Positions 2,907-23,968 of a DNA stretch of 23,968 nucleotides are shown here, piece after piece; the first letter of the stretch is position 1, and each line of letters begins with the position of its first letter. Under the pieces are notes generated by a model that had not been told where the DNA came from, did not search any database, and saw only the letters and a list, made by a program, of their open reading frames with translations. Source of the DNA: Paramecium tetraurelia (Eukaryota). A program made the position numbers and the translations under genes. The DNA is taken from positions 248,001 to 271,968 of the forward strand of contig CT868014.1 of assembly GCA_000165425.1 (NCBI GenBank). The letters run 5' to 3'.

Positions 2907-4014
2907 TCATTTATTTTGTACCTTAGGATGCTTTTTTGCTTATAGCAATAAATCTTCCACGTCTTTCTAAGAATAAGATTGGTATATACAGTTTATTAAT
3001 CTAAGTGCAACAAACATTCGCTTAAATTATTGACTATCTGATCCCATTCAGACTCTTCCTTTTCCAACCCTAGGATTTTCTCTTGTATTTTAACTACGTA
3101 ATTGATTTTACGTTCCAAGCCATCCAATTCCTTGCCCAATTATTTAATGGAGTCAATGAGTGATTCTTCATCTATTTCTAAAATTATATATTAATAGCAA
3201 TAATACCAAAAGATGTATCCTGTTAAGTAAGTTAATCGACAAGGGCAATTAATTAGGCATGAGTTTCGTCTTATTTTTTGCTGATATTCAAAAATACTTT
3301 ATTCCATTCATTATAATAGTTTTCAACCTTCTATGTATGATTTCTGCGATCCCCTTTCACCAAAGTTCTTTGCAATTATTATGGATTTGAATTGATTCCA
3401 AGTGTAGTAGCTGGCTATTATTATTGCTAGATATTCTTCAATGAGTTTTTCTCAATTAGTTACAAATTCTTTTAATTTTTCTCTATCTCCTCTTTGTTTG
3501 CTATTGCTTTAGTCAAGTTTTCAATATGTATTTTAGTTTGTTAATTAATTTAATTTAATGTGTAGTTTTTTGGTTATGCAGGTTGCTATTATGCAGTTGA
3601 TGGAGTTTGTTATGGTTATTATCCTAAACCTAAGGGTTGTTATTATTGAGGTTATCCAAGTAAATTGGGTTATTAGGTCTGTCCTAATTGTGGTATTTAT
3701 TATTGCGGTTGTCCTAATAATGAATTTGTTTATGGCTATTATCCTGTTAATAAAGTTTATTACTATTATCCTAAAAGTGGCTATTATTGTTATTATTGCT
3801 GTCCAAATATTCCAGTTGATTATTAGTTGTTTCCGAAGGTATTGGTCTATTGTGGTTATCCGAATATTCCTTATGGTTGTTACTATTACCCTAAGGGATT
3901 TTGATTCTGACCAAATAAGTTATTGGTAGGTGCAGGGTTGTTGAAAATTGAAGAAGTTAGGTTGCCTTATTGTTAGGTTGGAGCATTGTTGGTACCTGGA
4001 ATGTTTCCAAACAT
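2907..4014 (-). CDS. FG-repeat nucleoporin with C-terminal coiled coil (Nup62/Nsp1- or Nup58-like central-channel Nup), 351 aa
   Basis: ATG 4014, TGA 2907-2909, introns 3178-3206 (29 nt) and 2967-2989 (23 nt). The N-terminus is Q/N/P-rich with MFG, SIFN, NLFG, GIFG, TFG, GIFG and then LLG/LG units. The C-terminus is heptad-like (LIDSIKQLGKELDGLERKINYVVKIQEKILGLEKEESEWDQIVNNLSECLLHLDQQTKDVEDLL). The exact orthologue is an inference. Confidence 0.75.
3620..4014 (-). repeat. Low-complexity coding repeat: FG/LG units with poly-Gln spacers
   Basis: About 13 imperfect units of (x-I/L-F/L-G)-Q-rich spacer. The Gln runs mix CAA, CAG, TAA and TAG codons. Confidence 0.85.
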
Positions 4015-7285: not shown

Positions 7286-9071
7286 ATGATCTAGGAAGTG
7301 AATTCTTTTTTCGATATCCAAGAGAATCAAGGAAAATCCTCTAAAATCTGGTAACCTGTCAATATGGAAATATATAATGTAATATTCATTTTATAAACGC
7401 TACTAAGAATGACATCATAGTATTTTAGGATGACTGCAACAAAATCAGTAAAAAATCGAAACAACCAAAATCGATAACAATATAATTAGGGAATGAGCAT
7501 ATTTATCATATTAAAGACTCAAATATAACTTAGCTTAATATAACGGTAGCTGTCATGACAACTTACAAACATGACCAATTTGGCAATATCATTAGAATTT
7601 CTCGAAATGGAAAATTTGTTGATTTATAATTAGATGATTATGCTGTATTTAAGAATCTGATGTCATCGAGATGTCTATAAACAACTTTTCATGATGAATT
7701 CGGAGTTACAAAGATGATAGGAAAGGGAAGTTTTGCGAAAGTGTATTTCGCTACAAAGAAATCCACAGGAGGTAATTATGCGGTCAAAGCATTCAACAAA
7801 GAATTCATGTAAGAGTAATTCAAAGGAAGGGAATCATTAGAAAATGAAATCAAAGTCATGAGACGTTTAAACTAAGAAAATCTAGTAAGATTATACGAAA
7901 CTTATGAAACCCAGAATTCAATCTATTTTGTATTGGATATATTAAAAGGAGGTGAACTCTTAACTCGAGTCAAGTAATCACCCTTAAGTGCTCCAAGTTT
8001 ATAAAAATTAATGTACAATTTGATGAAAGCATTATGTCATTTGCATTCTAAAAAGTGTATGCATAGAGATTTGAAACCTGAAAATTTATTATTAAAAGAA
8101 AAAGATAATGATACAGATATTGTTATAGCAGATTTTGGATTAGCTAGTTTTTTAAATGAAGACATCTTATTTAAAAGATGTGGAACTCCAGGATTTGTAG
8201 CTCCTGAAATATTATTATACAAAGAAGGAGATCCATTTTATGATGAAAAATGTGATGTCTTTAGTGCAGGTGTTATCTTTTATGTTCTGCTAACAGGAAG
8301 ACAACCATTTTAAGGAACTGATTTCAAAGGTATTTTAAGAGCAAATAAGAATTGTGAAGTTAATTATGAAATAAAATAGATTCAAACTGTAATAAAATAT
8401 GATAATGAATATAGGCACCCCTTTAATTGGTAGATTTATTAAAGAAAATGCTATGTCCAGAACCAAAGACAAGAGTATCTTCAGAAGAATGTCTAAAACA
8501 TCCATATTTCAAGGAAATCTTTAAGGAATAAGATCTCATAGATGTTTAAGAGAGTCTCAGAGATTACGATAAGGACTTTGTCTATGGATTAGGCAAATAA
8601 TAAGGGTAAAACAGTAATTAATATCAAAGTCCACCAAGCTAAGTTGGTTCGATGTAATTGTAGTAGAGATAACCAGCATTGAATGGAAGGATTGACACAA
8701 TGGGTTCATTTTCAAATGTATCTAATAATGGATCAGTAACAAGATTAGATTAGAAACCACAATTACAATAAAGCAAATTTAGTTAATTTGGACATATAAA
8801 TAAGTAATAGCCTTAATCAGATGCAAGTAAGTTATTTGAATATATAGACTCACCTTAAATGAAGAAAAATTTGTAATCTGATCTACGTAAGACAGCATTA
8901 AAAAATTCTTTTTAATAACAAATTAATCAATTGAGCAAAGATGATGATTGTGTTAACGATGAGGCTGCTCATTTGGAAGATGCAATATCTAAATTGAATG
9001 CTTAAACACCCAAAATGGGAGGATTAAAAAAAGCAAGCTCATATAAAATACCAAAATCATCAATGGAATGA
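7286..9071 (+). CDS. Ser/Thr protein kinase, CAMK-group-like, with an N-terminal beta-rich (possibly PH-like) region and low-complexity C-tail, about 570-576 aa
   Basis: ATG 7286, TGA 9069-9071, introns 7379-7407 (29 nt, AAG acceptor) and 8389-8414 (26 nt), plus a possible in-frame intron at 8827-8847. All catalytic motifs are intact: IGKGSFAKV, YAVKAF, ENEI, HRDLKPEN, DFG, CGTPGFVAPE, DVFSAG, CLKHPYF. Confidence 0.95.
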
Positions 9072-10038: not shown

Positions 10039-10414
10039 TCATTGTTTTGGAATTTGTTCAAAGAATTTAGTTAATTAATCTGGTGGCAACATTCCTGTAA
10101 AATTATTCACTTTCTTTCCATTTTAAAATAACATAACAGTGGGTACTACTTCAATATTATTTTAATTTGCTAATTATTCATGTTGATCAATGTCTATTTT
10201 TATAAGAGTTACATTTGGATGCTCTTTAACTTTTTGCTCCAATATTGGAGTCAATCTCTTGCATGGTCCACACCATCTAGGTTATTATTAAATAAACTTA
10301 CGTTGCATAAAAGTCAACTATGACTGGCTTGCTAGCTTTAACAACATCATTCTCCCAATTTGTGAAGTTTTAAATACTACCAAAGCTTTTAATTAACTTG
10401 TTTAATCTGAACAT
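10039..10414 (-). CDS. Thioredoxin (WCGPC), probably mitochondrial, 116 aa
   Basis: ATG 10414, TGA 10039-10041, one 25-nt intron at 10277-10301. Reads PVIVDFYATWCGPCKRLTP...IKIDIDQHEQLA..NIEVVPTVMLFQNGKKVNNFTG. The N-terminus MFRLNKLIKSFGS is basic and lacks acidic residues, like a presequence. Confidence 0.95.
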
Positions 10415-10604
10415 AATTAAAATAATATAATTAATTACTTTCACAATTGTAATTCCGATGACAGATGTGATCCTCATTAATCATTTCATAGATAAATATG
10501 AAGATCCTCGTCATTTTTAAATAAAATTTACAAATATATAAAATACTCTATTAATTGAAAGTTATTTAGATAAACAATATAATATAAAATATACCTATAT
10601 TTAT

Positions 10605-11819
10605 TCATAATTGTTATTCTTCTTCTTTTTCTCTATCCACTGAAGAATTTTACAATTCAACTTCTTAGTTTTGATTGATAATATTATATGCTTTAGCCTT
10701 TTTGCATAACTTAAATAAAATTGCAATTAATGACAGAGCGCCAAATATTATCATTATGTAATATATAGGGAAGGTACTTTTATTTTGTAATGAATAACTT
10801 TAGCAATCAATTTATGAAAATGAAAAACTCTTTTCATTTTGATTAATTGTTAAGTATAAATTATTTAAAAAAGTAACACCTAATATGAGAGATTTCTTTC
10901 TATAAATAGGTTAAAATTTCATACTTGGATTGCTTAAAAGGGAGTTGTATATAATCTCCAGAATAGTACAAAAATTGATATGGTTAATACTCTAAATAAA
11001 AGGTTTCATTTATATATATTTTAATCGCTGATATATTTTATAGTATAAATTTGTTCTCATGTATACTTAAATATCCATAATTCATAATGCTGAATCCAAA
11101 TTACTTGTAAAAATTTGCTACTTCGCTTTTATTAATTATTTTAATACCTGAAGATACCTTAGGGTAATTCAGTAAATGGGTTTAGAGAATCTACTTAAAT
11201 GTTCACGTTTTCAATATTGATACTTGCATTTAACCCTATTTACATTTGCTTAAATTTAAAAGAATAAACATTCTCATGTTAGAAATAAGGTATTGTTATT
11301 GAGTTTTGTTGATTCTTCTATTTTGATTTATGAATAAAGCCTAGAGATGAGAAGCACAATGAAACTACATTTGATACAAAGGTATTTTATGGAAAAGTAA
11401 AATTCTAATGATTTTCTGTCTTATATAATTAAATCGGTACATAGTCTTCTCATTCCAAATCCAATTTAATTAGTTTTAATGGAATGTAGAGCTATAAATT
11501 CTTCGAATTATTTATCTCCTTTAATATTTTCAATCTCTATCACTGATTCTTATAGAGTTCCATTCTACTCCAAGTCCAACTAATCTATAAATGTATATCG
11601 ACAGAGTTGATCGCAATATTGGCATTTATAATTAATATTGCATTCTTAATTGGTTCCATTAATATCAGTAACACTAAACTCATTATTTAAATCTATGGTG
11701 TATTCTTCCTTGTTAATAACAATGTAATATTTCAAAGTCAATTCATTTTGTCTAAGTGGGTATGTATCTTTAGGAAGATCAAAGCTTAAGACTAATTAAA
11801 ATAATATATAAATTAACAT
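10605..11819 (-). CDS. Type-I membrane pepsin-fold (peptidase A1-like) protein with degenerate catalytic motifs, 380 aa
   Basis: ATG 11819, TGA 10605-10607, introns 11416-11440, 11126-11147, 10900-10924. It has a signal peptide, Cys cluster, VVSLCFS, VDSLNPFTELP (cf. IDSGTTYTYLP), YQPYQFLY and LILGVTFLNNLYLTINQNEKSFSFSQIDC (cf. ILGxxFLxxxYxxFDxxNxRIGF..C), then a TM helix (IYYIMIIFGALSLIAILF) and a short tail. Confidence 0.75.
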
Positions 11820-11836
11820 TAATAATAAATAATTTA

Positions 11837-12985
11837 TCATTTCAGAACTTCTACTTCATTATTAGAAATCAATTGCTATTATTCAACATTTTTATTCTTT
11901 TTCAATAAGTGTTGAGCTCGTATCTTTCTAAATATTGCATAAATAATTATCAATATAATTATTATGAAGATAATCTTAAACATTAGATATTCAAAGATTG
12001 TTTCTTTCTTGATTTGATTAGGCTTGCATCTCTCTCCCTATAATTATTCTATAAAAATTTCTTTAGTTTCGGATTAATAATGAATAATCTTATTTTTCAG
12101 AAAACTATGACCTAAAACAATTTCAGACAAAAAGTTAGAACCAAAAAGCTTCAAAACATCTAACCCTCTATTTTCAAAATTATAATAGAGGTAATCCTCA
12201 GGCAAAATGACCAAGGGCTGGTGCTTAACATTATAAAATTTGATTAAATTTAAATTTTCAATTCTTTATTAATTTGTTTCTCTGATATATACTTCGTACT
12301 CAGGGATATAGGAACCTTAAATAAAGTCATGCGATAATGATTTAAATATTTTCATCATAAGTTCTATAGGAATACTACAATAATCTATTTGATCATTTAA
12401 GACGATAGAATAATTTGAGATATTAAAAATTTATTGTTCAACTTCCAAATAATCAATTCTAATTGAATAAAAATCGCTTATTTAATCAATTTCCTTTATA
12501 TTGCTCTTGATTCCATTCATTTTATTTTGATGATTAAAGATTGCTTCATTCTGATTAGTTTTAAGATAACCATCATCATGAGAAATGCATAATGTATACC
12601 CAAAATATACAAAAGAGTTGTAAATTGGTGAAAAAGGATTTAATGCTATAAAATTTTAGATATCTTCATTATCTTAATATTCCATAAAAAAATGGATAAA
12701 GGAAAAAATTTCTGTATTATATGAATGCTTTTCTTGATCATAAATATCAAATTCGCTAATTTTTAATTAGTATTAATTTATTTAATTATTTATACCAATC
12801 AGACAACCTTAAGTAGCATATGGGCAATATAAATAATCATTTTCATCTGAAATCTGTGAAAATTTGCCTTAAAAGGATATATATGCCTTTAGTGACTAGG
12901 CTATTTCAATCAATAGACCATCCTCTTTCACCTCTAAATTATATAAGGAATAAGCAATTTAGAGTAATGCAAATATAATAATCAT
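11837..12985 (-). CDS. Second, more divergent type-I membrane pepsin-fold-like protein lacking catalytic motifs, 382 aa, intronless
   Basis: ATG 12985, TGA 11837-11839, 1149 nt open in code 6. It has a signal peptide, YTLCISHDDGYL, FYSIRIDYLEV, IVLNDQIDYCSIP, ILPEDYLY and IVLGHSFLKNKIIHY..C, then a TM helix (IIFIIIILIIIYAIF) and a basic tail. Confidence 0.7.
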
Positions 12986-13029: not shown

Positions 13030-14480
13030 ATAGGTTCATATAATAATCTAGTACCTCCTTAATTTTAAGGAAAAACATAATTTTCATATTGACTTACAAA
13101 ATTTAAAGCTTAAATTGATAAATTAAAGTGAATATTTGATTCTTTTATGGAGGTCGATTGATGTTTAATATTAGTTCTTTATAATAGATAATTTAATTAA
13201 TAAATCAATGAATTTTAATAATAGGAGATAATAAAATTTTTAATTATGCCTAACATCAATTTGATTATAACGAAACTATATATTTAATGTTTCCTGGTTG
13301 ATGATTTTTTGGCATCACAACATATTGAATTTTTTAAAATCATATATAAACTTTGTTTATGTTTAAAATTTTGTTTGGAGTGATATTAAATATGATGTTT
13401 TAATTTCAAATAAAATGAGATCAACCAATCGATAATATAAATATAGAAAATAAATTCATCATACCTTAAACGTAAATATTAATTGAATAATAATAAGAGA
13501 ATTAGATACGTTTGAATTGATAAACTAATAAATAAAGTGGAGTTAATCTTACTAAAGTTCTGGTTGCATATTTTTTAAGAATATTATCGGATAAGAAAAA
13601 GATTGGGGTTTCTTCCAATAATATTTAGTAAAATAATTACTTTAACATTAGAAAGCTGCAAGATTTAAATAATTAACAAAGAGGATGAAAATAACAAAAG
13701 AACAAAGGCTGTAACAGAGAGTCTATTCTAAAAATCATCAATTGAAGCATAAACTAATATAGAAGAAAACATCAAGATAAACTAACAAGTAGGGAAAATT
13801 ATTAGCACTCAAAAATAATTGGTAGCAATACTACCAAGATTAGCAGGACTAGAATTAAATTACTATAATTTCTATTAAATATGAGAGTGTTTAATGATAA
13901 CTTCGATCAGCTTATGTATATTTGCTATGTTATAAGGAATAAATATCAAAATAAAGGAGACATACGAGATATATATATATGTGCAAGTCAAGTATTTAAA
14001 ACTTACATTTTTGAATACGTGGCGATTCTTTTTCAATTGAATTATTGACAAATAAGAATTTTACTTCTGAGTCGGCTTTTGATATTTATTTGTATTAAAC
14101 TCGGAGCTTTAGTGGAGATGTTTAGTAAATTTATAATGAAAGTTTTGGAAATCAATATTTAATTCCTAGCTTCTCTCTAATTGATGTTGATACTGGTTTA
14201 AAAATAAATATTTCATATTATCATTGGGGGGTCATTAAGATTCAATTTATTCTCATAGATTTTAAATGTCATCAAACCTTATACCTCTAGCATTTTAATA
14301 GGGAGGACTTAAGATAGTAATTTTCCTTTTCTCTTGTTGACCTGAGATTTATAGTATTTGGCAAATAAAACAATTAAAACTAATTACTATTTAACTGTAT
14401 TCTGCCTAATTTATCTGAGTAAATTGCTTTATTAGTATCTATCAACTCATGAAGGAATAGAATACTAATCATTTATAATC
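13030..14480. pseudogene. Coding-like but unresolved region, possibly a decayed gene
   Basis: Long TGA-free stretches occur on both strands: a minus frame with hydrophobic segments (VLIIFPTCQFILMFSSILVYASIDDFQNRLSVTAFVLLLFSSSLLII) and a plus frame (INKEDENNKRTKAVTESLF..LPRLAGLEL). I found no complete ATG-to-TGA model and could not decide the strand. Confidence 0.25.
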
Positions 14481-14750
14481 TTAAATATATTTAATGTACT
14501 GGTAATATTAATTAATAGCACTAGAAATTTACCTTTAAATAAAAAATTTTAAATAATAAATATATTTTCATAACCAAAGTTGAAATTGATTAATATACTT
14601 TAAAATTAAATGAGTTCAATTTATCCTCAAAAGTTCCTCTGATTAATCCTGTTTTATTTATACAAAAATAATCGAATAGAATTTTTTTTCAAATTTCTGA
14701 ATTGATGTTTCACTTTGAAATAAATTCAAATTTAATTATTAATATTTTTT

Positions 14751-17700
14751 ATGGAGGAAGCCTTATTAGCTTTAAAAGAGAATAGCATTTAATTGGCAAT
14801 AAACAAATTTCAAAGACAAAAAGTTGAGAATGAAGGAGCTAAAGTTCTTTTAAGTAAAATTAATGAGTTTTACTAATCATAAAGAGAGATGGCTTGTAAT
14901 TGGATCATTCGGAATGAACAAATTTCAATAGTTAATAAATTTCGAGCTTATAATATCTTAGGTATCAACTTATATATAATTAGGTTGTACCTTAGATGAT
15001 GAAAATGAGAAATATACAAATTTTGCAATGGCATTAAAAATGGGTATTAATTAGCATTTTGATATCTCTGACACTCTGATAAATTTTCAAAAGGTGTGCT
15101 TACGTTAATAAAAATATGATTATGTCGTTAAATTTGCTAAAGTTTCTAATTCATTTTAAGGAAGACATCGAGTAGTAGCATTATACAATTAAGCTAAAGG
15201 TCATCTTGGGTTAAATTAAATAAAAGAATGCAAAGAATGTTCGTAATAGGCTTATTAAGAATGTAAAAGTCTCTACGGACTGAAAGATCCTATGACGATA
15301 CGATTAGAGGAATACTTAAATTTATTAGAACAGAACTAAGATTTATATATAAGCTATCAAACACCTAATAATCTCGATTTATCAAGATTATCATTTTAGA
15401 GTAGTTAACCAAGAACCAAATAACGTTTTGATAGAACTTTTACCTAATTTGATAATAAAAATATGTCAAATGATTTCAAAAGAGAAAACCTAAATACATA
15501 AGAATTAAGAGCAGAGTTTTTTTATTAAAATAAAAAAACAAATACATTAGAGAATTAAAGTTTCTGTTGTGATTTAATCTAAGAGTTTTTCAGTTTTGCA
15601 GATATCACAATAATAGTAAAGAATGTATAACCTAATTCTCCTTGCTAAGCATTATTTTAAGATTATTAAAATTTACTCTAAGAAATTCTAGATGAAGGGG
15701 AAGAATAAAATAATTAAATATCTCAATTAAACAACATTTCAGAAGAAACTACTAAGAACAATGTATTAATATACTAATTAACACCACAGAATGAGAATAA
15801 TATATCCTAATTAGATAAAATGATCTACATTTAAAGAGCATAAATTTAGGGCCTTCTTATATAAAGTGTTTAAAAAGATATTAATTTAAAATTAGATGAA
15901 AACTTATTCTAATATCAAGTCATGAAAGGGTCTAAAGCAAAACAAGATGATATAAATGATTTCTTTCTGAACCTGAAAAATACTTTGGATAGTATTGTAA
16001 TATTAACATATAAATGTTAATCTGAGATAGAAGCAGATAGAATTCTAAACATTTTAAAATAAAAGATTATTTATAAAAATATTAGCAGACAACTGAATGT
16101 AGAAGATTTAGATATAATTTTATCATCTGAAATCAATCTAACTGATTTTTCAATTTATCCTACTTTATTAAGATAGGCTTAAAACTTAAAATCAAATACA
16201 AACTAGATTATAGTTATTTGTAAGCTAAGTAACCCATCTAATCTTTAGTAACTTTAGAATTAGTTCTAAGGATTGGTATAAAAATCCTAATATTTATAAT
16301 TAATAAAGGATTAATTTGATATAGAACTTGTATTTAATCCTGATGTAAATGATATAGATCAAAAAGGAAGGTAACTTTAGTAGAATGAAGAATAGTTTGA
16401 AATATCAGTATCATAACCAGAACTTAATGTTGGAAATAAAAAAATGTTTGTTGTTAATTCAGTAATACAATTCTGGATGGATAGTAGGACTTAATCGATG
16501 AATGAAGAAAAATAAATATTTACAAGAATCACACATTTAATATTGTAAATCTATTTTCCAAGCTTATCCATTACTGTAAAAGATGAAAAGCAAATGAAAT
16601 TATGGTAAAATTTCTTGTATCAATTTCATCCTAATAATCCAAAAGAATCTTACATTATTAATACATAGTTATTAATAGAAATATAAGGAGAATCAACTAA
16701 AATAGAAGACAAATATAAATCAATTATAAAAGAGTTAACAGAATTTCAGTTCAAGAGATTTTCCTTTGACGTTCAAGAGGAGATTGCAAAAGTTTTAGCA
16801 GAAGAACAAAATTTTGAAAACCAATTTAAATCTAGTTTAGAAAGAATTTCTCAAAAATAAGGGCAATGTCTAATTTAGATTGTTGGGGTTAGTAATAATA
16901 AAATATTAGTTGATGTTTATGTAAATGATAAAACAAAATTAAATAATATTTAAAGTGACCTTTAAAAAGATTTCTTTAATGAGTTATGTATACATGTAGA
17001 AAAGAACCTTGACATTGAAGATTTATACGCTTATTTAGGAATGGATAAATAATAGTTCAAAGCTGAATATGAAGTTGAAGTACATAGGTGCAATAAAGAG
17101 TATTTTTTCATTTGTTTAAATATACTTTTAGACGAGGTTAAACAATTAATTGAGTACACAAAATAGGAAAAAAAAGAAAATAGAAAAAATGAATGTATTG
17201 AGTGCAAAAATACCCTTGTATTCCTTGAAATAAAAAAATAATTCGTGAATGAATCAACTTATGGAAATGAAGAAATTCATATCAATTTTGCCTAAAATAA
17301 CAAAATTATAATCAAAGCATCGAAATAAGAGTTATTAAAAACAACATCTGAGACAATAATTTAAAAAATGAAAAATCTTGAAAATTAATTGATAAGTAAA
17401 GTTTGTACATTTTAAGAAAAACAGATGAAATTTTTCAAAAAGAAGTTCGAATCATAATACAAAGATTTAGAAAATGAGAAATCAGTAGCAATCAAATTTT
17501 AGACTAATTAATTTTCAATAATATCTAGAGTCTTATTCGAAGATAAAAAACTTCAGTTGATTTAAGCTAATATAATTTCATTAGAATGCGATGCTATAGT
17601 AAATTTTCATTGTTCACAAAAAAACAATTTTGGAGTTAGCACTTTAACACAAGAAATTTTAGATTTTGGAGGATCATTGTATTAGCAAAATTTTCTTGAG

Positions 17701-19505
17701 CTTTTAACAAACAATACTCCTTCATAAAATGAAATTGATATCACAATTTCTTAATTAAGTTCATTTCGAAATATCCATTATATTATCAATTTAATTATTC
17801 CTACTTCAAGCATCCTGAGTAATAGTAATCCTTAAACAATATAATAAATTATAGATAGTCTTTTCGATCACATTCAAAACAAATATGAAATCTCTAGATT
17901 AGCTATTCCAATATTTAATATTTGTGGGAATACTCATACCTAAAATATTTAAACATATCTTAATGCTATAATTTAGAGATTATTCAATAATGAACATCCA
18001 GTCAATTAAATCTATTTAGTTGAAATAGATCAATAAAAAATACAAATTGTAGATTCTGTTCTTTCGGATATTTCAAAAGTTTCTCCAAATAGTCACTCAC
18101 AGAATTAATGGCAATGGAGAGATACAATTAATTTTGTAAATTATAATGAGGATATAAATAAATAAATAGATGATGCTTATGAAAGATTTGAAAAATCAAA
18201 ATAAGAAATAATTATTGATTTAAAATTTCAGATTGAAAGCAAACCAAGTACTCATACTGTTGATCTAAAAAATTTAAAAATAAAGGAATTATCATCTAAT
18301 TTTGAGTAGAAAATAATTTTTGAAAGAAAAAGGAATAAAATAAGTTATTTCATTAACGATGAAGAATTAGAATAAGAACTGACTTAATATTTTATCAATA
18401 TGTATAATAAATAATGCTTTTTATTTGACATTTTTTGGAAAAATTTGTAAGTAGTATTTAATAACTAAGGTATGTATTAACTGAATACAAATACGAATTA
18501 TAAAAGAATTATTTAAAAAATTCCTTATTTGCAAGACAAGTTGGGAGCAAAACAACTATATGAATTAAATATTAATAAGATTTAAGATTGCTAAAATTAA
18601 ATTGTGATTTAATCTTTCGATTCTGATTTGAATGATATGATTTTAAGAGAGATTAAAGAAAAATTGTCTCAATCCTTAATTACTTAAAGAATAGTTTTAC
18701 CTTAATTGAGTAATAACGAACTAAAAAATTTTACTGGATATATAGAAAGCATAGCTTAAGTTATTCAAGGTAGAATGATGTCAGGATAAACTATTAATGT
18801 TGAAATTTTTAAAAATAAAGAAAAAAAGTTGTTTCAACAATTAGAATTAGTCAAAAGTTATGCAAAAGAATACCCTAAGAACTGGATAGCCTAAACAGAA
18901 AATTACATCAAAGTTCTTCTTGATTAAAATTCCTAGGAATATAAATAAATTAAAAATCTGTTTTAGAAAACAGAGAAGGGATCTATTAAAGCTATTTTTA
19001 GGATATAGAATAAAGTGTTATGGGATAATTATATTGTAGAGAGGAACAAGTTATTTGAAATTCATAAAAAGTAATCAGGACTATTACTTCCAGAAGAACG
19101 GGAGAGATATCTGTGGCATGGAGTATATTCATAACATCCATCCGTAATATACAAGAATTAGACAGAAGCTTTTGATGTTACATATAGTAGAGTAATAAAT
19201 TTAATTCAAAATAGGTTGGATTATGGGGATAAGGTATTTATTTTGCCGAAAATGCCTCCTACTCCAGAACTTATTCTTATAAAATTTAAATTCAAGATGA
19301 TCCTAAATATGCGGGCAATTTAGTATTTTTATGTTGCTTAGTTACAACTGGTAAAGCTGAAAATTGTTAGCAAAATAATAATATTAGAAAACCAAGCGAT
19401 GGATTTGATTGTGTTACTGGATTTACAAATGGAAGCAACATATTCGTTATATATTAAATGCATGTAAGAAGAGCATACCCAGCATATGAAGTTATCTATT
19501 CATGA
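14751..19505 (+). CDS. Multidomain PARP-family mono-ADP-ribosyltransferase: TPR-like N-terminus, long central region, macro domain, two WWE-like domains, ART catalytic domain; 1569 aa
   Basis: ATG 14751, TGA 19503-19505, introns 14962-14983 (22 nt) and 19192-19214 (23 nt), 4710 nt spliced. Macro domain at about 17545-18066 (LQLIQANII..CDAIVN..EILDFGG..YIINLIIP..RLAIPIF). WWE at about 18106-18327 (QWQWRD..FVNYNEDINKQIDDAYE..HTVDLKNL). Second WWE-like at about 18340-18525 (VVFNNQGMYQLNTNTNYKRIIQK). ART at about 18870-19502 (RIQNKVLW, YLWHG, WGQGIYFAENASYS, LVTTG, FDCV, NIFVIY, AYPAYEVIY). Confidence 0.93.
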
Positions 19506-19559
19506 TTAAACTTACATTATTTAATTTTATAATAAGATTACATGACATTGTTGTTTTTA

Positions 19560-21000
19560 ATATATCTGATTTGAACTTCAAATAAATTTATAGTTTAATC
19601 CAAATTTTTATTTTTTCAATTTTCTTATTCTAATAAACTTCATCTTATGTAGAAACCAATTATTATAAGAACCCTTTTCTAAATTATGAAGGATTGATAG
19701 AAAGAACCTTCAAATATATAAGATTCTAAAATATTGATTGCGTTCGTGTAAATACTATCCAAATAATAGAATATATTAAATTATGGTCTTTATACAAAGT
19801 TAAATTTTATTTTCCTAAAGAAATTGAAAATACTGATCTTTGGCATCTGAATAACAGTAAGAAATTTAAATTATTACCTGAAGTAGATTAAACTTTAAAA
19901 GTAAATTTAACTAACTTTTGTGTAATATCTAATTTAAATATATATTATTTAATTTTATGAGTAGTTTTAGAAATTAACCATCCTTTCTAATAATTATTCT
20001 CTCTCAAAAATTTCGAAAAGACTAATAGAGAATCTGTTATGAAAATAATCGTTAATTGTAGTAAAGATAAAAAAAGCTCATCCAGCTCAAAATCATTTAA
20101 GCTTGATAATTTTCCCAATAGATTTTAATTGAAAAGTAGAACCTAAAAAATACGTTTTAACTATATTTTATTTTTAATCACAAATTAGAATTCAAATTAT
20201 TTTACTCTAAAAGAATAATCTTTATTAATAATTAATATGGTAGAGATTGAAATTGTTTTAATAGGAACTAAAAGAAGAATTTGAGATTAAACTTAAAATT
20301 TAACATGTAATAAAATGAGTTAACTCGCCTTCTCCTAAAAATACTAACTGCTTTGAATAGACTCAAATTAATGACCCTGATGTGTTACAAATAAAAACCT
20401 AAAAAATAAGTTTAAAATCTTAAAGAGAGTAGTAGAACTATATATTTTGATATAGCGATTCCTTCATATTAATAAATCACATTCGCACGATATAAAGTTC
20501 TTCCCTCAGTGGGATTCAAAATGATATTTAATTTGCCATAACCATTTTCTTAATTTATAAAACTAATAGAATTAGAATCAGATCTTAAATCAATTTCCTA
20601 ATAGAAAAGGTCTTTGATACATCTTTTAGTGCTCCTTATCTATTCTTGATCCCTCTTCCTAAATCATAGACCTAATTACTTTTATGCAGATTGCTCTCTA
20701 AATAGGAATGGGTTATATATTTATTATTTCTAAATTTTAATTGGTTAAGGAGAAATTTAATAATCTTCTCTTCTTCTTATTTTAGAAATATGATAAGTCC
20801 TGCAAATAAATACTATTTTTTTTAAGATTCTTATTCAGATAATCCCAGCAAGTAATAATGGACAATTTGTAATACGAAATGACATCTATCATAAAAGGAT
20901 AAGCTTTTATAATTTTTTGTTCCTACATTGTTACTTCAACCCTAGGGTTTATTGTTAAAGGAACTTAGAAATAATATAACAATATTTTTGGTCTAATTGA
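19560..21000. pseudogene. Coding-like unresolved region, probably a decayed gene
   Basis: Protein-like fragments occur on the minus strand (GLIIFLKQEEEKIIKFLLNQLKF..YDLGRGIKNRQGALKDVSKTF; DAKDQYFQFLQENKIQLC), and there is a TGA-free plus frame at about 19645-20042. No consistent model. Confidence 0.25.
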
Positions 21001-21467
21001 TTTATTCAAGTATTTATATAATTTTATGAGGAATGATACTGATATTATTTATAGTTTAAATGTGATATTTCATTTTTCAAAAAGGTTACAACTAATTTAA
21101 AGATAAGTGGGTAGTTAAAATATTTATTTAATCCTGATCGATTTGAAAACACAATAACCATTGTATAATAATTTTTATTTTTTTTTCATTTTTTTTATGA
21201 TCCAAGATAGATTAAGTCAATTTAAACGTATCTGTATGATTTTATAATTTAAGTATCAATTTGCTAAAAAAAATGAATGCATCTCTTTTGAAAATGCCAA
21301 ACTTTGAAAAAAGAATAAACTACTATCATTTAATATTTTCGATTAATTTATTAATAAAAAAACAAATTATATATATAAATATTGAAAATTTAATTATATA
21401 TATAATATCATTTATCTTCTAATAATCTCACAAGCATATCCAATAATATCTTATAATATTGCCTTTC

Positions 21468-23968
21468 ATGATAAAGCACTCAATATTTTATTCAATTTAA
21501 AGTACTTTGATTTTTGCGACCTGTGAAATTTTACACACTAATTCAACATTATTGCACATCTTTTTTGACTCAGTATAAATATAAAAGTTACAAAAAATCT
21601 ATGAACCTTACAATCCCTTGATCATTCTTGGCAAAAGCTCCTTATCATGCGCATCCCACTGTAAGATAACTACTTCTTTATGCAAAAAAGAATATTCAAT
21701 AACTATAAATATGATGATAAATATAATATCCAATTTAAATATTATTTATTGAGACATAGAAATCTTTCAAAATTATATGATGTAGCTAGCAATGAAAGAA
21801 TTACTATTTTCTGAACCAAATAATTCTTATAATTATAACTATTTAATAAAAACTAGATTTTTCCTCATAATTGAAATACCAATAAGATTACTAAAGCTAT
21901 TAGTATTAAATCTAAAATAAAAGTCAAATCCTATAATTTTGTACAAAGAATTAGAGATTTTAATTACATATTCAAGATAATGTTTGTTACTTTAAGAAGG
22001 TTTGAATCATAATATTTTCGATTACATAAAATTAGGAAAAAGCGAGAATTTTCTTATTTGTCATTTGATTTAATTCCTCTTTTCCATTTAATTGTAGCGA
22101 AATTACTTTAGGACATGCCAATAATATTTAAAATTTAAATTGATATTTTGACGACATATACATAGATATGAGAGTTCCGAAAGTAAAAAAAATGAAGAAA
22201 ATTAATATTCTATAACATAGGATTAATCAAAAGTTTATGTAAATAATTTAGGCATCAAAATTATAAAAGTAACTTATATTATTATTCAACATAATATTTT
22301 TCTTAAATAGCAAATTTAAAATGATCCAATCAGATATATCAAGAAGGGAGACTCCACTATAAAGAATTTAATGTAAAAATCTCTGAAAAGGCTAGATGAG
22401 TGAACAGAATAGTCCCTTTAAAAAATAATTTATCTTTCATTTATTATGATGGAGGATTTTATGAATTATTTAACATGAATATAGAAGAACTTATTCTAAA
22501 GGGAAAACTTCCTGATAAATTAACGTTTTTTCTTGAACTTTACACAAAGTAATTTTTAACAATATTTAAAAGATTTTTGGTATTTCATGATACCCACAGA
22601 TGTTTAAATCAAAATATTAGACTTGAATGTTAATTAAGCCAACCTTAATTTGCTTTTAGATCAAATGAAAAAATAGTAATAAATAGTGACGAATTGACTA
22701 GAGAAATATTTAATGATAGTAATATAATATTAGATATTATGAATTTAGGCTTTACTTTCTCGATTGTAAGGCGAAAAGGCTAAATATTTGATATCCTAAG
22801 AATTAGAAAAGTAAAACTCAAATAAAAGTTTTTCTAATCTCACCCGGTACAATTTAGCATGAAATGAAAATTATAAATTTCTCTAATCTAACTAATCCTT
22901 AGTAAAAATTTCAAGCTTCTGAATGAAATAGAATGGTAAAATTGTGATATAGAATTTCTAAATATATTCAAGCTCAATCAAATGAGAGGGACTTTTCATC
23001 ATAAGAATTACAGAAATTAATGGTTTATAGTAATATTGATTTGAGAGAGCAAAAAAATTGAATATCAAATATGCGTAAATCGTAAGCTAAATTTTTAATT
23101 TTAGAGAGTTTTGTATGAATTGATAATCCTATGGAAGTAAATGATGTACTTTGGCGTTTGTTAAACATTAAAGAGACCAGCCAATTCTCTTAAAATATAA
23201 AACATGTTTGATGTTTCTAGAAATAGTTGCGATTTCATCAAAATATAAGATTCATTGTATTATGTTAAACAATTTATAGAGTTAATTCTTATGATTTGTA
23301 TTTTATATTATACAGATCATTTGCATATGAATTATTAAAAAATATCATTTTTAATACAATTTGTATTAAAGATTAAATTTTTACTATTATAGTTGAATTT
23401 AGAATCATCCTTATTCTTCAAGGATTATTAATTTAACACAGAGATTAATAATTAAGTAATCATCTAGATCATATAAAGTATAAATTAAAATAAGATAGTG
23501 AATGTTGAGGAAATAAACAATACACGTAGAAAGGTGTTTAAACTTGTTTTTTTATGAATATAAAGAAAACAAGCGAGATACTGTTTTCGCTCTTATGCAT
23601 TCATCTTTCCATACTTTGGTGAATGAAGATATTTACTATCATATATTCTAACAGGATAGTGTTGATGGAATCCATCATGAAATATAGTAAATTATACTTA
23701 GCATGCTTTAATCAAATTCACCCAATCCAAAAAGTTAATCTATGAGTGATGTTCCAATAATATTTACAATTAATTAGAATTATTCATGAAATTATTAATA
23801 ATCATATTACTATCATTAATATTGATTAGAAAATGTTGTAGAAATAATGAAGGAAGAAAAAAATCAATTATAAGAGGAAATTATAGAAATGTGCTGTAGT
23901 TAAATAGTGGAGCCCTTATAAGTTCAAGAAAAATGAACAATTTTTTTGAAGGAGGTTAAACATCATTG
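21468..23968 (+). pseudogene. Probable decayed large secreted or surface protein gene, continuing past the window edge
   Basis: A signal-peptide-like start (MIKHSIFYSIQSTLIFATCE) is followed by successive I/F/Y/N-rich open segments in different frames, each ended by TGA without intron-like junctions. One example is DGGFYELFNMNIEELILKGKLPDKL..FQSHPVQFSMK at about 22448-22867. Confidence 0.4.

Follow-up and report, generated by a model that had tools for sequence, protein, structure and literature searches.

The described proteins closest to the one examined here are PARP14, an antiviral protein of animals whose age has been put at about 700 million years (PMC13224862), the PARP14-like proteins of amoebozoans, choanoflagellates and sponges (Citarelli 2010, Clade 3D; Perina 2014), which are near relatives, and a macro+PARP protein of Clade 3 from Paramecium tetraurelia itself (Perina 2014; PMC4245714). 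In the part of the latter study considered here, the macroPARP ancestor is placed in unikonts and the Paramecium protein is treated as a possible independent gain of a macrodomain, and in Tetrahymena the Clade-3 proteins are reported to carry no other known domains (PMC2964712). We analysed a window (that is, the whole stretch of 23,968 nucleotides from P. tetraurelia contig CT868014.1, positions 248,001 to 271,968) in which a preliminary description, made from the sequence alone, had proposed a PARP14-like protein and called it the best candidate for an undescribed system. That layout is supported and, as profile alignments suggest, probably goes deeper than was noted, with a KH array included; the claim of an undescribed system was overstated, since a macro+PARP protein had already been reported in this species.

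Gene structure and expression

The 1,569-residue product (code 6) is identical to the P. tetraurelia database protein GSPATT00031850001 (P0003) and is encoded on the + strand by three exons separated by two GT-AG introns, from 14751 to a TGA at 19503-19505 (Table 1). The spliced model and the database protein agree with the start, end and length given in the preliminary description; its 'one ORF', however, does not hold, as the product needs both introns removed. The sole long stop-free frame (14830-19545; 1,571 residues, code 6) is wrong at both ends, and the single-ORF reading was therefore dropped, whereas excision of the two introns yields exactly 1,569 residues. Three poly(A) reads, all from one of four runs, leave the genome at 19193 and resume in exon 3; for intron 1, no supporting read is listed in the four runs. 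Over 13400-20400, three runs gave 16, 44 and 19 sense-strand poly(A) reads, and a small-RNA run gave two partial reads. The gene is real and weakly expressed.

Table 1. Positions in the window of the exons, introns and protein regions of the gene, with the support for each.
Feature	Residues	Position	Strand	Support
Exon 1, start of helical/TPR region	1-70	14751..14961	+	Conserved in orthologues P0004-P0008
TPR-like region, about three TPR_12-type repeats	~29-190	14835..15342	+	ESM Atlas 0.96; without Pfam match
Intron 1, 22 nt, GT-AG		14962..14983	+	Database model; position shared with a 22-nt intron of the C687 remnant
Exon 2	71-1473	14984..19191	+	Translation
Conserved middle region; C-terminal half (~633-912) a probable KH-like array, 262-630 without domain assignment	262-912	15556..17508	+	Profile alignment; HMM
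Macrodomain fold, degenerate pocket	~918-1100	17524..18072	+	Paralogue alignment, motif survey, family profile
WWE1	~1111-1176	18103..18300	+	Pfam E 4.7e-6 (cut piece); hhalign
WWE2	~1190-1251	18340..18525	+	Alignment; hhalign
Probable KH7b half-domain (~1274-1301) and KH8-like region (~1302-1364)	~1274-1364	18592..18864	+	Profile alignment
Clade-3 ART, split by intron 2	1366-1569	18868..19502	+	Pfam, profile, alignment
Intron 2, 23 nt, GT-AG		19192..19214	+	Three reads; position common to the C28 and C19 paralogues
Exon 3 and TGA	1474-1569	19215..19505	+	Translation

Domain architecture and a putative KH-like array

The macro, two WWE and ART domains are all supported by sequence tools, in the order first noted. 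For the N-terminus, the proposed kinesin-light-chain-type TPRs are supported by the ESM Atlas (first match to TPR_12 clusters, at a score whose calibration was not measured for parts of proteins; ten of the ten best family matches fall in one clan) but not by Pfam, which detects no TPR on the window protein and is silent on P0003-P0008; the repeat count is inferred from the sequence pattern. The TPRs of P0003-P0008 have no detectable kinship with those of P0009/P0047 (E 0.16 vs 0.22 reversed). A TPR match at C687 was considered as the donor gene of the TPRs and as a recent ohnologue, and was rejected as both because C687 proved to be a truncated member of this family, with no synteny to the window detected.

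The protein has one macrodomain, on which Pfam Macro gives no match; this region can be aligned over its whole length with paralogues matching Pfam Macro at E 1e-13, and the family profile matches the solved macrodomains of macroH2A (E 4e-11) and PARP14 (E 2e-9). Binding and hydrolysis of ADP-ribose by macrodomains are judged by the NAAN motif, the loop-1 Gly and the loop-2 motif (PMC7729036, PMC10221186). All four pocket motifs are lost or changed in the window copy (Asp to Asn933, the second Asn of NxxN to Cys, the loop-1 Gly to Thr, and loss of the Gly-rich loop 2); the C28 and C19 paralogues, which are TPR-less and match Pfam Macro, keep them and are without the loop-2 aromatic needed for hydrolysis. 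The Gly-rich loop 2 is missing from all eight TPR-bearing proteins and present in all five of the named TPR-less ones; other pocket residues persist unevenly in the TPR clade (Asp in 4/8, loop-1 Gly in 3/8, second Asn in 1/8). Identity to orthologues is 54-56% for the macrodomain and 72% for the ART in the TPR clade, against 85% and 77% in the TPR-less clade, and stays at 68-71% for the WWEs. With its pocket degenerate, the earlier label of 'reader-writer' is doubtful for the window copy.

The two WWEs directly follow the macrodomain, about 110 residues upstream of the ART. By hhalign, both can be aligned with the tandem WWE that relatives carry (E 1.3e-10, 132 columns), and the Pfam match seen on the cut piece is absent on the full protein; WWE2 is without the W-x-W start and retains the invariant Q1236, N1238, T1241 and R1245. 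In the ART, Pfam PARP matches residues 1387-1544 (E 7e-15), and among solved structures the family profile scores best against the ARTs of PARP15 and PARP14 (E 1e-19 to 1e-16), with tankyrase behind them; the other PARPs fetched from G000 are far more distant. The triad consists of H1449 (19117), Y1482 (19239) and, presumably, I1549 (19440), a position that we set from the alignment and the PARP14/PARP12 motif. H and Y are invariant in all 12 named full-ART Paramecium members and the third residue is I or V, an aliphatic third residue being a mark of Clade-3 mono-ARTs (PMC2964712). The H-Y-I triad supports a Clade-3 ART of mono-ART type, for which mono-ADP-ribosyl transfer is predicted.

A KH array, thought absent in the preliminary description, is apparently present, in which case the TPRs would replace the N-terminal cap only. 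The C-terminal half of the middle region aligns by profile, in register, with the end of KH3 to KH7a of PARP14 (hhalign E 1.1e-4 and 0.0035 for the middle region against animal PARP14, and 1.8e-7 against a protist set; reversed controls E>0.6 throughout), and the profile of the WWE-ART linker (residues 1276-1357) aligns to residues 1248-1333 of Conger PARP14 (E 5.3e-4; reversed E 0.6), a protein in which Pfam KH_PARP14_8 covers 1278-1341. Two separate regions are thus in register on either side of the insert, KH7a just before the macrodomain and KH7b-KH8 just before the ART. Of 24 proteins picked solely by macro-to-ART similarity, 12 score higher with a Paramecium pre-macro HMM than 99 of 100 shuffles do (9 of 21 once three close sister proteins are set aside), and this HMM matches P0215 and P0091 at the place where Pfam KH also matches. 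Single-KH profiles reach E 0.018-0.39, and an Atlas search of residues 262-910 gave weak KH leads (0.78 and 0.76). A first hhalign comparison, with one group only, was not significant (middle E 0.15, linker E 0.048). Pfam KH gave nothing under E 0.3 on any of ten Paramecium pieces, a motif scan of the middle region found no GxxG, and Pfam found no RRM on the window protein. Against KH7b-KH8, the window linker sequence alone was not significant (28/200 shuffles), none of four Paramecium linkers taken singly rose convincingly above shuffles (5-64 of 200), and the linker HMM did so in just 6 of 27 single sequences. Given that the middle region and the linker align in register with KH3-KH7a and KH7b-KH8, we suggest that the protein probably has the KH chassis of PARP14, with macro-WWE-WWE inserted in a split KH.

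Family turnover, origin and role

The family turns over in Paramecium, as it holds a truncated, frameshifted remnant (C687) as well as ART-less and ART-dead copies. The ohnologue dN is 0.34, against 0.08 and 0.18 in two flanking pairs (of four flank comparisons, two in non-coding frames were dropped, and an internal stop occurs in one of the flanks retained), and dN/dS is about 0.28 for the C28/C19 pair, so no positive selection is shown.

The macro-WWE-KH-ART order is common to dictyostelid, amoeba, Diphylleia, Pharyngomonas and glass-sponge proteins and differs in bilaterian PARP14. Whether the layout is ancient or convergent was left undecided in the preliminary description; the evidence leans to ancient, but the ART tree resolves its deep nodes poorly; it has a bilaterian PARP14 clade (100/100) that leaves Paramecium out. 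A tree of 77 rows was a quick one only. Convergent assembly, in which a ciliate Clade-3 ART would have gained macro and WWE independently and the middle region would consist of unrelated alpha/beta repeats, seems unlikely to us: the independent macro gain raised in the part of Perina 2014 considered here would fit, as would a tree position of Paramecium and its sister groups that lies outside a group of protists, sponge and bilaterians (92.8/94), the weakness of the KH similarity and the capacity of amphipathic repeats to line up by pattern, yet the in-register matches on both sides of the insert, the reversed controls and the pre-macro matches among proteins picked by macro-to-ART similarity speak against it. 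Slightly less likely again is a shared origin through lateral transfer, with an amoebozoan or another protist as donor, not descent from the LECA; the distribution is patchy, with no Tetrahymena, Stentor or Oxytricha protein among the named matches (a minority of all matches), and the Tetrahymena Clade-3 proteins without other known domains point the same way, but the named carriers span Amoebozoa, Diphylleia, a heterolobosean, a glass sponge and P. bursaria, and Paramecium is nested in no named group. The PARP14-like layout in Paramecium hints that the PARP14 design predates animals and, if the KH chassis holds, this design would be older than the divergence of the ciliate line from that of animals and amoebae.

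The explanation that we favour, and regard as reasonably probable, is a single-macro mono-ADP-ribosyltransferase of the PARP14 lineage that has turned into a targeted writer, with a KH scaffold and a structural macrodomain. The KH-like array would serve as a long scaffold whose split KH, like that of PARP14, holds the inserted domains, the TPRs and KH surfaces without GxxG would choose the protein target, and the ART would attach single ADP-ribose units. As the macrodomain would now be structural, the window copy would neither read nor erase the mark through it, and reading may be left to the WWE pair and to C28 and C19 with their intact pockets.

A conditional response to stress or conflict is the most likely role, and an anti-pathogen role is possible, at clearly less than even chances. 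The defence function proposed earlier is unsupported beyond hints of an indirect kind: the four family IDs searched are all missing from the Caedibacter DEG table, and the gene IDs have no match in the searched supplement files of PMC4535620 and PMC3091696. A rival reading, which bears on the role alone and agrees with the biochemistry favoured above, falls just short of an even prospect; the protein would be a low-level housekeeping or developmental mono-ART (for example, in RNA granules, autogamy or proteostasis) with no antimicrobial role, and its fast change would reflect weak constraint on a poorly expressed gene. Very low expression, a purifying dN/dS, absence from the Caedibacter table and retention in five aurelia species are in keeping with this, whereas the repeated loss and gain of domains is similar to the way in which macrodomains turn over in immune macroPARPs (PMC10221186). 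It is very improbable that the window copy is decaying toward a pseudogene: its lost macro pocket, few reads and damaged sister copy at C687 would fit decay, but the 4.2-kb exon is without TGA at 24% GC, full-length orthologues occur in four other species (ART 72-87% identical) and spliced mRNA is observed. More tentatively, and on balance somewhat unlikely as a whole, the PARP14 chassis may be as old as the LECA, with macro-WWE-KH-ART as the ancestral order that was rearranged in bilaterians, and Paramecium may hold a divided, fast-turning conflict system of dead-pocketed TPR writers (whose TPRs may have been acquired twice), reader-writers without TPRs, and regulators that are ART-less or ART-dead and analogous to PARP9/PARP13. 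Because RNAi is available in Paramecium, along with known endosymbionts and with paralogues naturally divided into writer, reader and dead forms, the pre-interferon job of a PARP14-type enzyme is practical to test here.

Comparison with known systems

The P. tetraurelia protein of Perina 2014 is probably the C28 or C19 paralogue, both of which match Pfam Macro; it differs from the window protein in that macro and PARP only are given, with no WWE, KH, TPR or pocket loss, in the part of that study considered here, and we did not find the KH chassis, WWE pair, TPRs or dead pocket of the Paramecium protein in print. Among the near relatives, the Polysphondylium, Luapelamoeba and Oopsacas proteins share the single macrodomain, WWE, KH7b-KH8-like linker and ART, but the N-terminal cap is CAP-Gly/U-box/RRM in Luapelamoeba and an RRM in Oopsacas, and the macro pocket motifs of the amoebozoan, choanoflagellate and sponge relatives are largely intact where aligned. 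PARP12 and PARP13 likewise carry, ahead of the ART, a pair of WWE folds that retain their motifs to unequal degrees (PMC9720839), although the Paramecium protein shows no CCCH fingers and its WWE pair follows a macrodomain. With vertebrate PARP14, it shares a mono-ART-type ART, macro and WWE and, probably, the KH array, the split KH with a macro insert and KH8 before the ART (PMC10450202). Vertebrate PARP14, in contrast, has three tandem macrodomains rather than one, a single WWE after KH8 rather than two that probably lie inside the split KH, and N-terminal RRMs where the Paramecium protein has a TPR-like cap and no RRM detected; in the window protein the macro pocket is degenerate, and Paramecium has no interferon system.

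Gene model and domain content

The preliminary description read the gene as one 1569-aa open frame, of which the length stands and the single frame does not. The sole long open frame in the code 6 translation of the window, 14830-19545, has outermost residues (the first 51 and last ~117) without homology to anything found, and we dropped it on these grounds and given that a two-intron model matches a known protein exactly: the spliced product is 100% identical to P0003, on record as P. tetraurelia GSPATT00031850001 / A0BSV1. By our estimate, expression lies at ~0.1-0.4 fragments per kb per million. In the interval 13400-20400, three poly(A) runs yielded 16, 44 and 19 reads (part of them on an upstream gene), all oriented as a + strand transcript would be in a stranded library; three reads from one poly(A) run span intron 2, a small-RNA run gave two partial reads, and none were seen 3' of the gene (19506 to 20400) in the runs examined. 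The contig ends ~4.5 kb past the gene, with no telomere repeat seen there.

Features of the window and of related P. tetraurelia loci
Feature	Position	Strand	Remarks
Q/N-rich protein with LFGQ/IFGQ repeats	window 3043-4014	-	No Pfam match; presumably nucleoporin-like
Ser/Thr protein kinase	window 7555-9071	+	Ordinary neighbour
Thioredoxin	window 10039-10477	-	Ordinary neighbour
At least two adjoining genes, apparently secreted or single-pass membrane proteins	window 10605-12985	-	No Pfam match
Window protein	window 14751-19505	+	1569 aa after splicing out two GT-AG introns (22 and 23 nt)
AT-rich stretch reaching contig end	window 19506-23968		Weak coding signal
Frameshifted, truncated family remnant	L011:7955-8743 (C687:24954-25742)	minus	Similarity to P. 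octaurelia P0008
ART-less paralogue	L014:3833-7240 (C51)	minus	Consists of middle region, macro, both WWEs and half the linker
Degenerate-ART pair	L015:3186-6817 and L016:3181-6761 (C19 and C28)		WWE, linker, ART without His motif

The domains named previously are in the main supported by sequence comparison. The ART matches Pfam PARP, and PARP15 and PARP14 are the top-ranked structures for its family profile; WWE1 matches Pfam when searched as a cut piece, both WWEs align with the tandem WWEs of relatives (E 1.3e-10), and the macrodomain was detected through paralogues and profiles. The proposed TPRs are backed by ESM Atlas (first 200 residues, 0.96 against TPR_12 clusters) but not by Pfam, which gives no match there. 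H1449 and Y1482 of the ART triad are invariant and the third position is I/V in 12/12 of the named Paramecium proteins whose ART is complete; by this triad, the ART is predicted to be of the Clade-3 mono-ART type, in which H-Y is followed by an aliphatic residue (PMC2964712).

A probable PARP14-type KH chassis

Human PARP14 carries a KH array, a split KH bearing the macros, then KH8, WWE and ART (PMC10450202), and the window protein probably has a chassis of this type, as judged from profile comparisons. With the TPR-to-ART region as profile, 997 proteins matched at E<=0.001, the best 150 of which were listed. The 260 residues preceding the Paramecium macro align to the equivalent region of protist (E 1.8e-7) and animal PARP14 (E 1.1e-4) sets selected partly by that same region, with reversed-sequence controls at E>0.6. 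A set of 24 proteins was picked by macro-to-ART similarity alone (25 new matches minus one without a macro match); for 12 of them (9/21 without three close sister proteins), the score of a Paramecium-only pre-macro HMM exceeded >=99/100 shuffles. Two good matches, P0215 and P0091, have Pfam KH matches in that region. In a longer alignment, aa 633-912 correspond to 497-768 of Conger PARP14 (E 0.0035), that is, the end of KH3 (Pfam coordinates) through KH7a, whose boundary is our own assignment; after the WWEs, aa 1276-1357 correspond to Conger 1248-1333 (E 5.3e-4; reversed control 0.6), which is KH8 plus the stretch preceding it. Several results count against such a chassis: single-KH profiles were weak (E 0.018-0.39), Paramecium WWE-ART linkers were not significant one by one, and a Pfam KH search of the Paramecium pieces gave nothing under E 0.3. 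A motif scan found no GxxG in the KH-like regions of the window protein, so canonical RNA binding by them is doubtful.

Pocket loss, family turnover and possible role

The macro of the window protein is altered at four pocket motifs: the Asp that precedes the first strand motif and has a role in the pocket, the NxxN at its second Asn, the Gly of loop 1, and the Gly-rich loop 2. Loop 2 is missing in 8/8 TPR-bearing proteins, which retain the Asp in 4, the second Asn in 1 and the loop-1 Gly in 3, and all four motifs are retained in 5/5 named TPR-less proteins, P. bursaria among them; the form with a TPR cap and no pocket is therefore the derived one. The roles of the NxxN, loop-1 Gly and loop-2 motifs are taken from PMC7729036 and PMC10221186; by the criteria of the latter, the pocket-intact paralogues would be readers and not hydrolases, because they are without the loop-2 aromatic. 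Within the TPR clade, orthologues are 54-56% identical in the macro and 72% in the ART; within the TPR-less clade, the values are 85% and 77%.

At least three genes with an intact ART occur in the P. tetraurelia genome (C31, the window gene; C28; C19). The C687 remnant has 72-81% identity and covers only aa 2-223 of full-length P0008, the remainder not being found within 7-37 kb of that contig. The ART-less paralogue shows frame changes (introns or breaks) and resembles P0049, P0053 and P0061 (P. sonneborni, P. primaurelia). The degenerate-ART copies, one of which is P0066 (GSPATT00030042001), each share a contig with an ART-intact paralogue, at a distance of 40-50 kb, and may possibly be dead enzymes in the manner of PARP9/13. 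The ART-intact C28/C19 genes form a syntenic pair (dN 0.34, dS 1.20; two flanking pairs, dN 0.08 with dS 1.24 and dN 0.18 with dS 0.76) that is fast-changing, yet under purifying selection. No relatedness was detectable between the TPRs of two sub-groups of the family.

From domain content and motif states, the window protein is most likely a targeted mono-ADP-ribosyltransferase: the TPR and KH-like scaffold would choose a target, the ART would place the mark, the macro would now be structural, and the mark would be read either by the WWE pair or by paralogues whose pocket is intact. Its activity, targets and location are inferred, as is the division of labour. A conditional role in conflict fits the low expression and the birth and death of family members, which also fit weak constraint. 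A Caedibacter study (PMC5814942) lent no support: it lists a different PARP, and 0/4 family IDs appear in its Table S1, a negative weakened by low counts.

Ancestry and comparison with animal PARP14

The system is not undescribed as such: Perina 2014 (PMC4245714) already reports a Clade-3 macro+PARP protein of P. tetraurelia and suggests that the macro was gained independently. The same paper describes amoeban and choanoflagellate proteins of PARP14-like type that combine macro, RRM and WWE. Citarelli 2010 (PMC2964712) did not find Clade 3 in Paramecium, and a 2026 review gives PARP14 an age of 700 million years (PMC13224862). For ciliate macroPARPs, our search, mostly outside subscription papers, found no literature on KH, WWE, TPR or loss of the pocket.

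The order of one macro, WWE, a ~110-150-aa linker and ART recurs in Diphylleia rotans, Luapelamoeba hula, Pharyngomonas kirbyi, Polysphondylium violaceum, Oopsacas minuta and many further proteins, the protist labels coming from transcriptomes that possibly include prey sequences. An animal KH7b-KH8 HMM scored the linkers of these proteins above 199-200 of 200 shuffles, and 14/19 proteins tested reach <=2 of 200. In relatives, the shared core is capped at its N-terminus in various ways: NYN, DUF4145, CAP-Gly+U-box+RRM, RRM and SAM (P0091, P0095, P0116, P0019, P0015). Separately, the multi-macro proteins P0058 (from Amphiura) and P0068 have a C-terminal Deltex DTC domain in place of the ART.

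An ART tree of 43 rows and 196 columns, with a single distant Clade-1 sequence as root, recovered Paramecium (SH-aLRT/UFBoot 100/100), TPR-bearing rows nested inside it (99/99), bilaterians (100/100) and protists+sponge+bilaterians (92.8/94), with weak support at most other deep nodes. Of the ancient or convergent origin previously envisaged, the tree is compatible with the former, short of proof. Bilaterian PARP14s have several macros and a WWE downstream of KH8, whereas the protist and glass-sponge type has one macro and a WWE before the linker; likewise, the WWE follows KH8 in human PARP14, whereas both WWEs precede the KH8-like stretch in the window protein.
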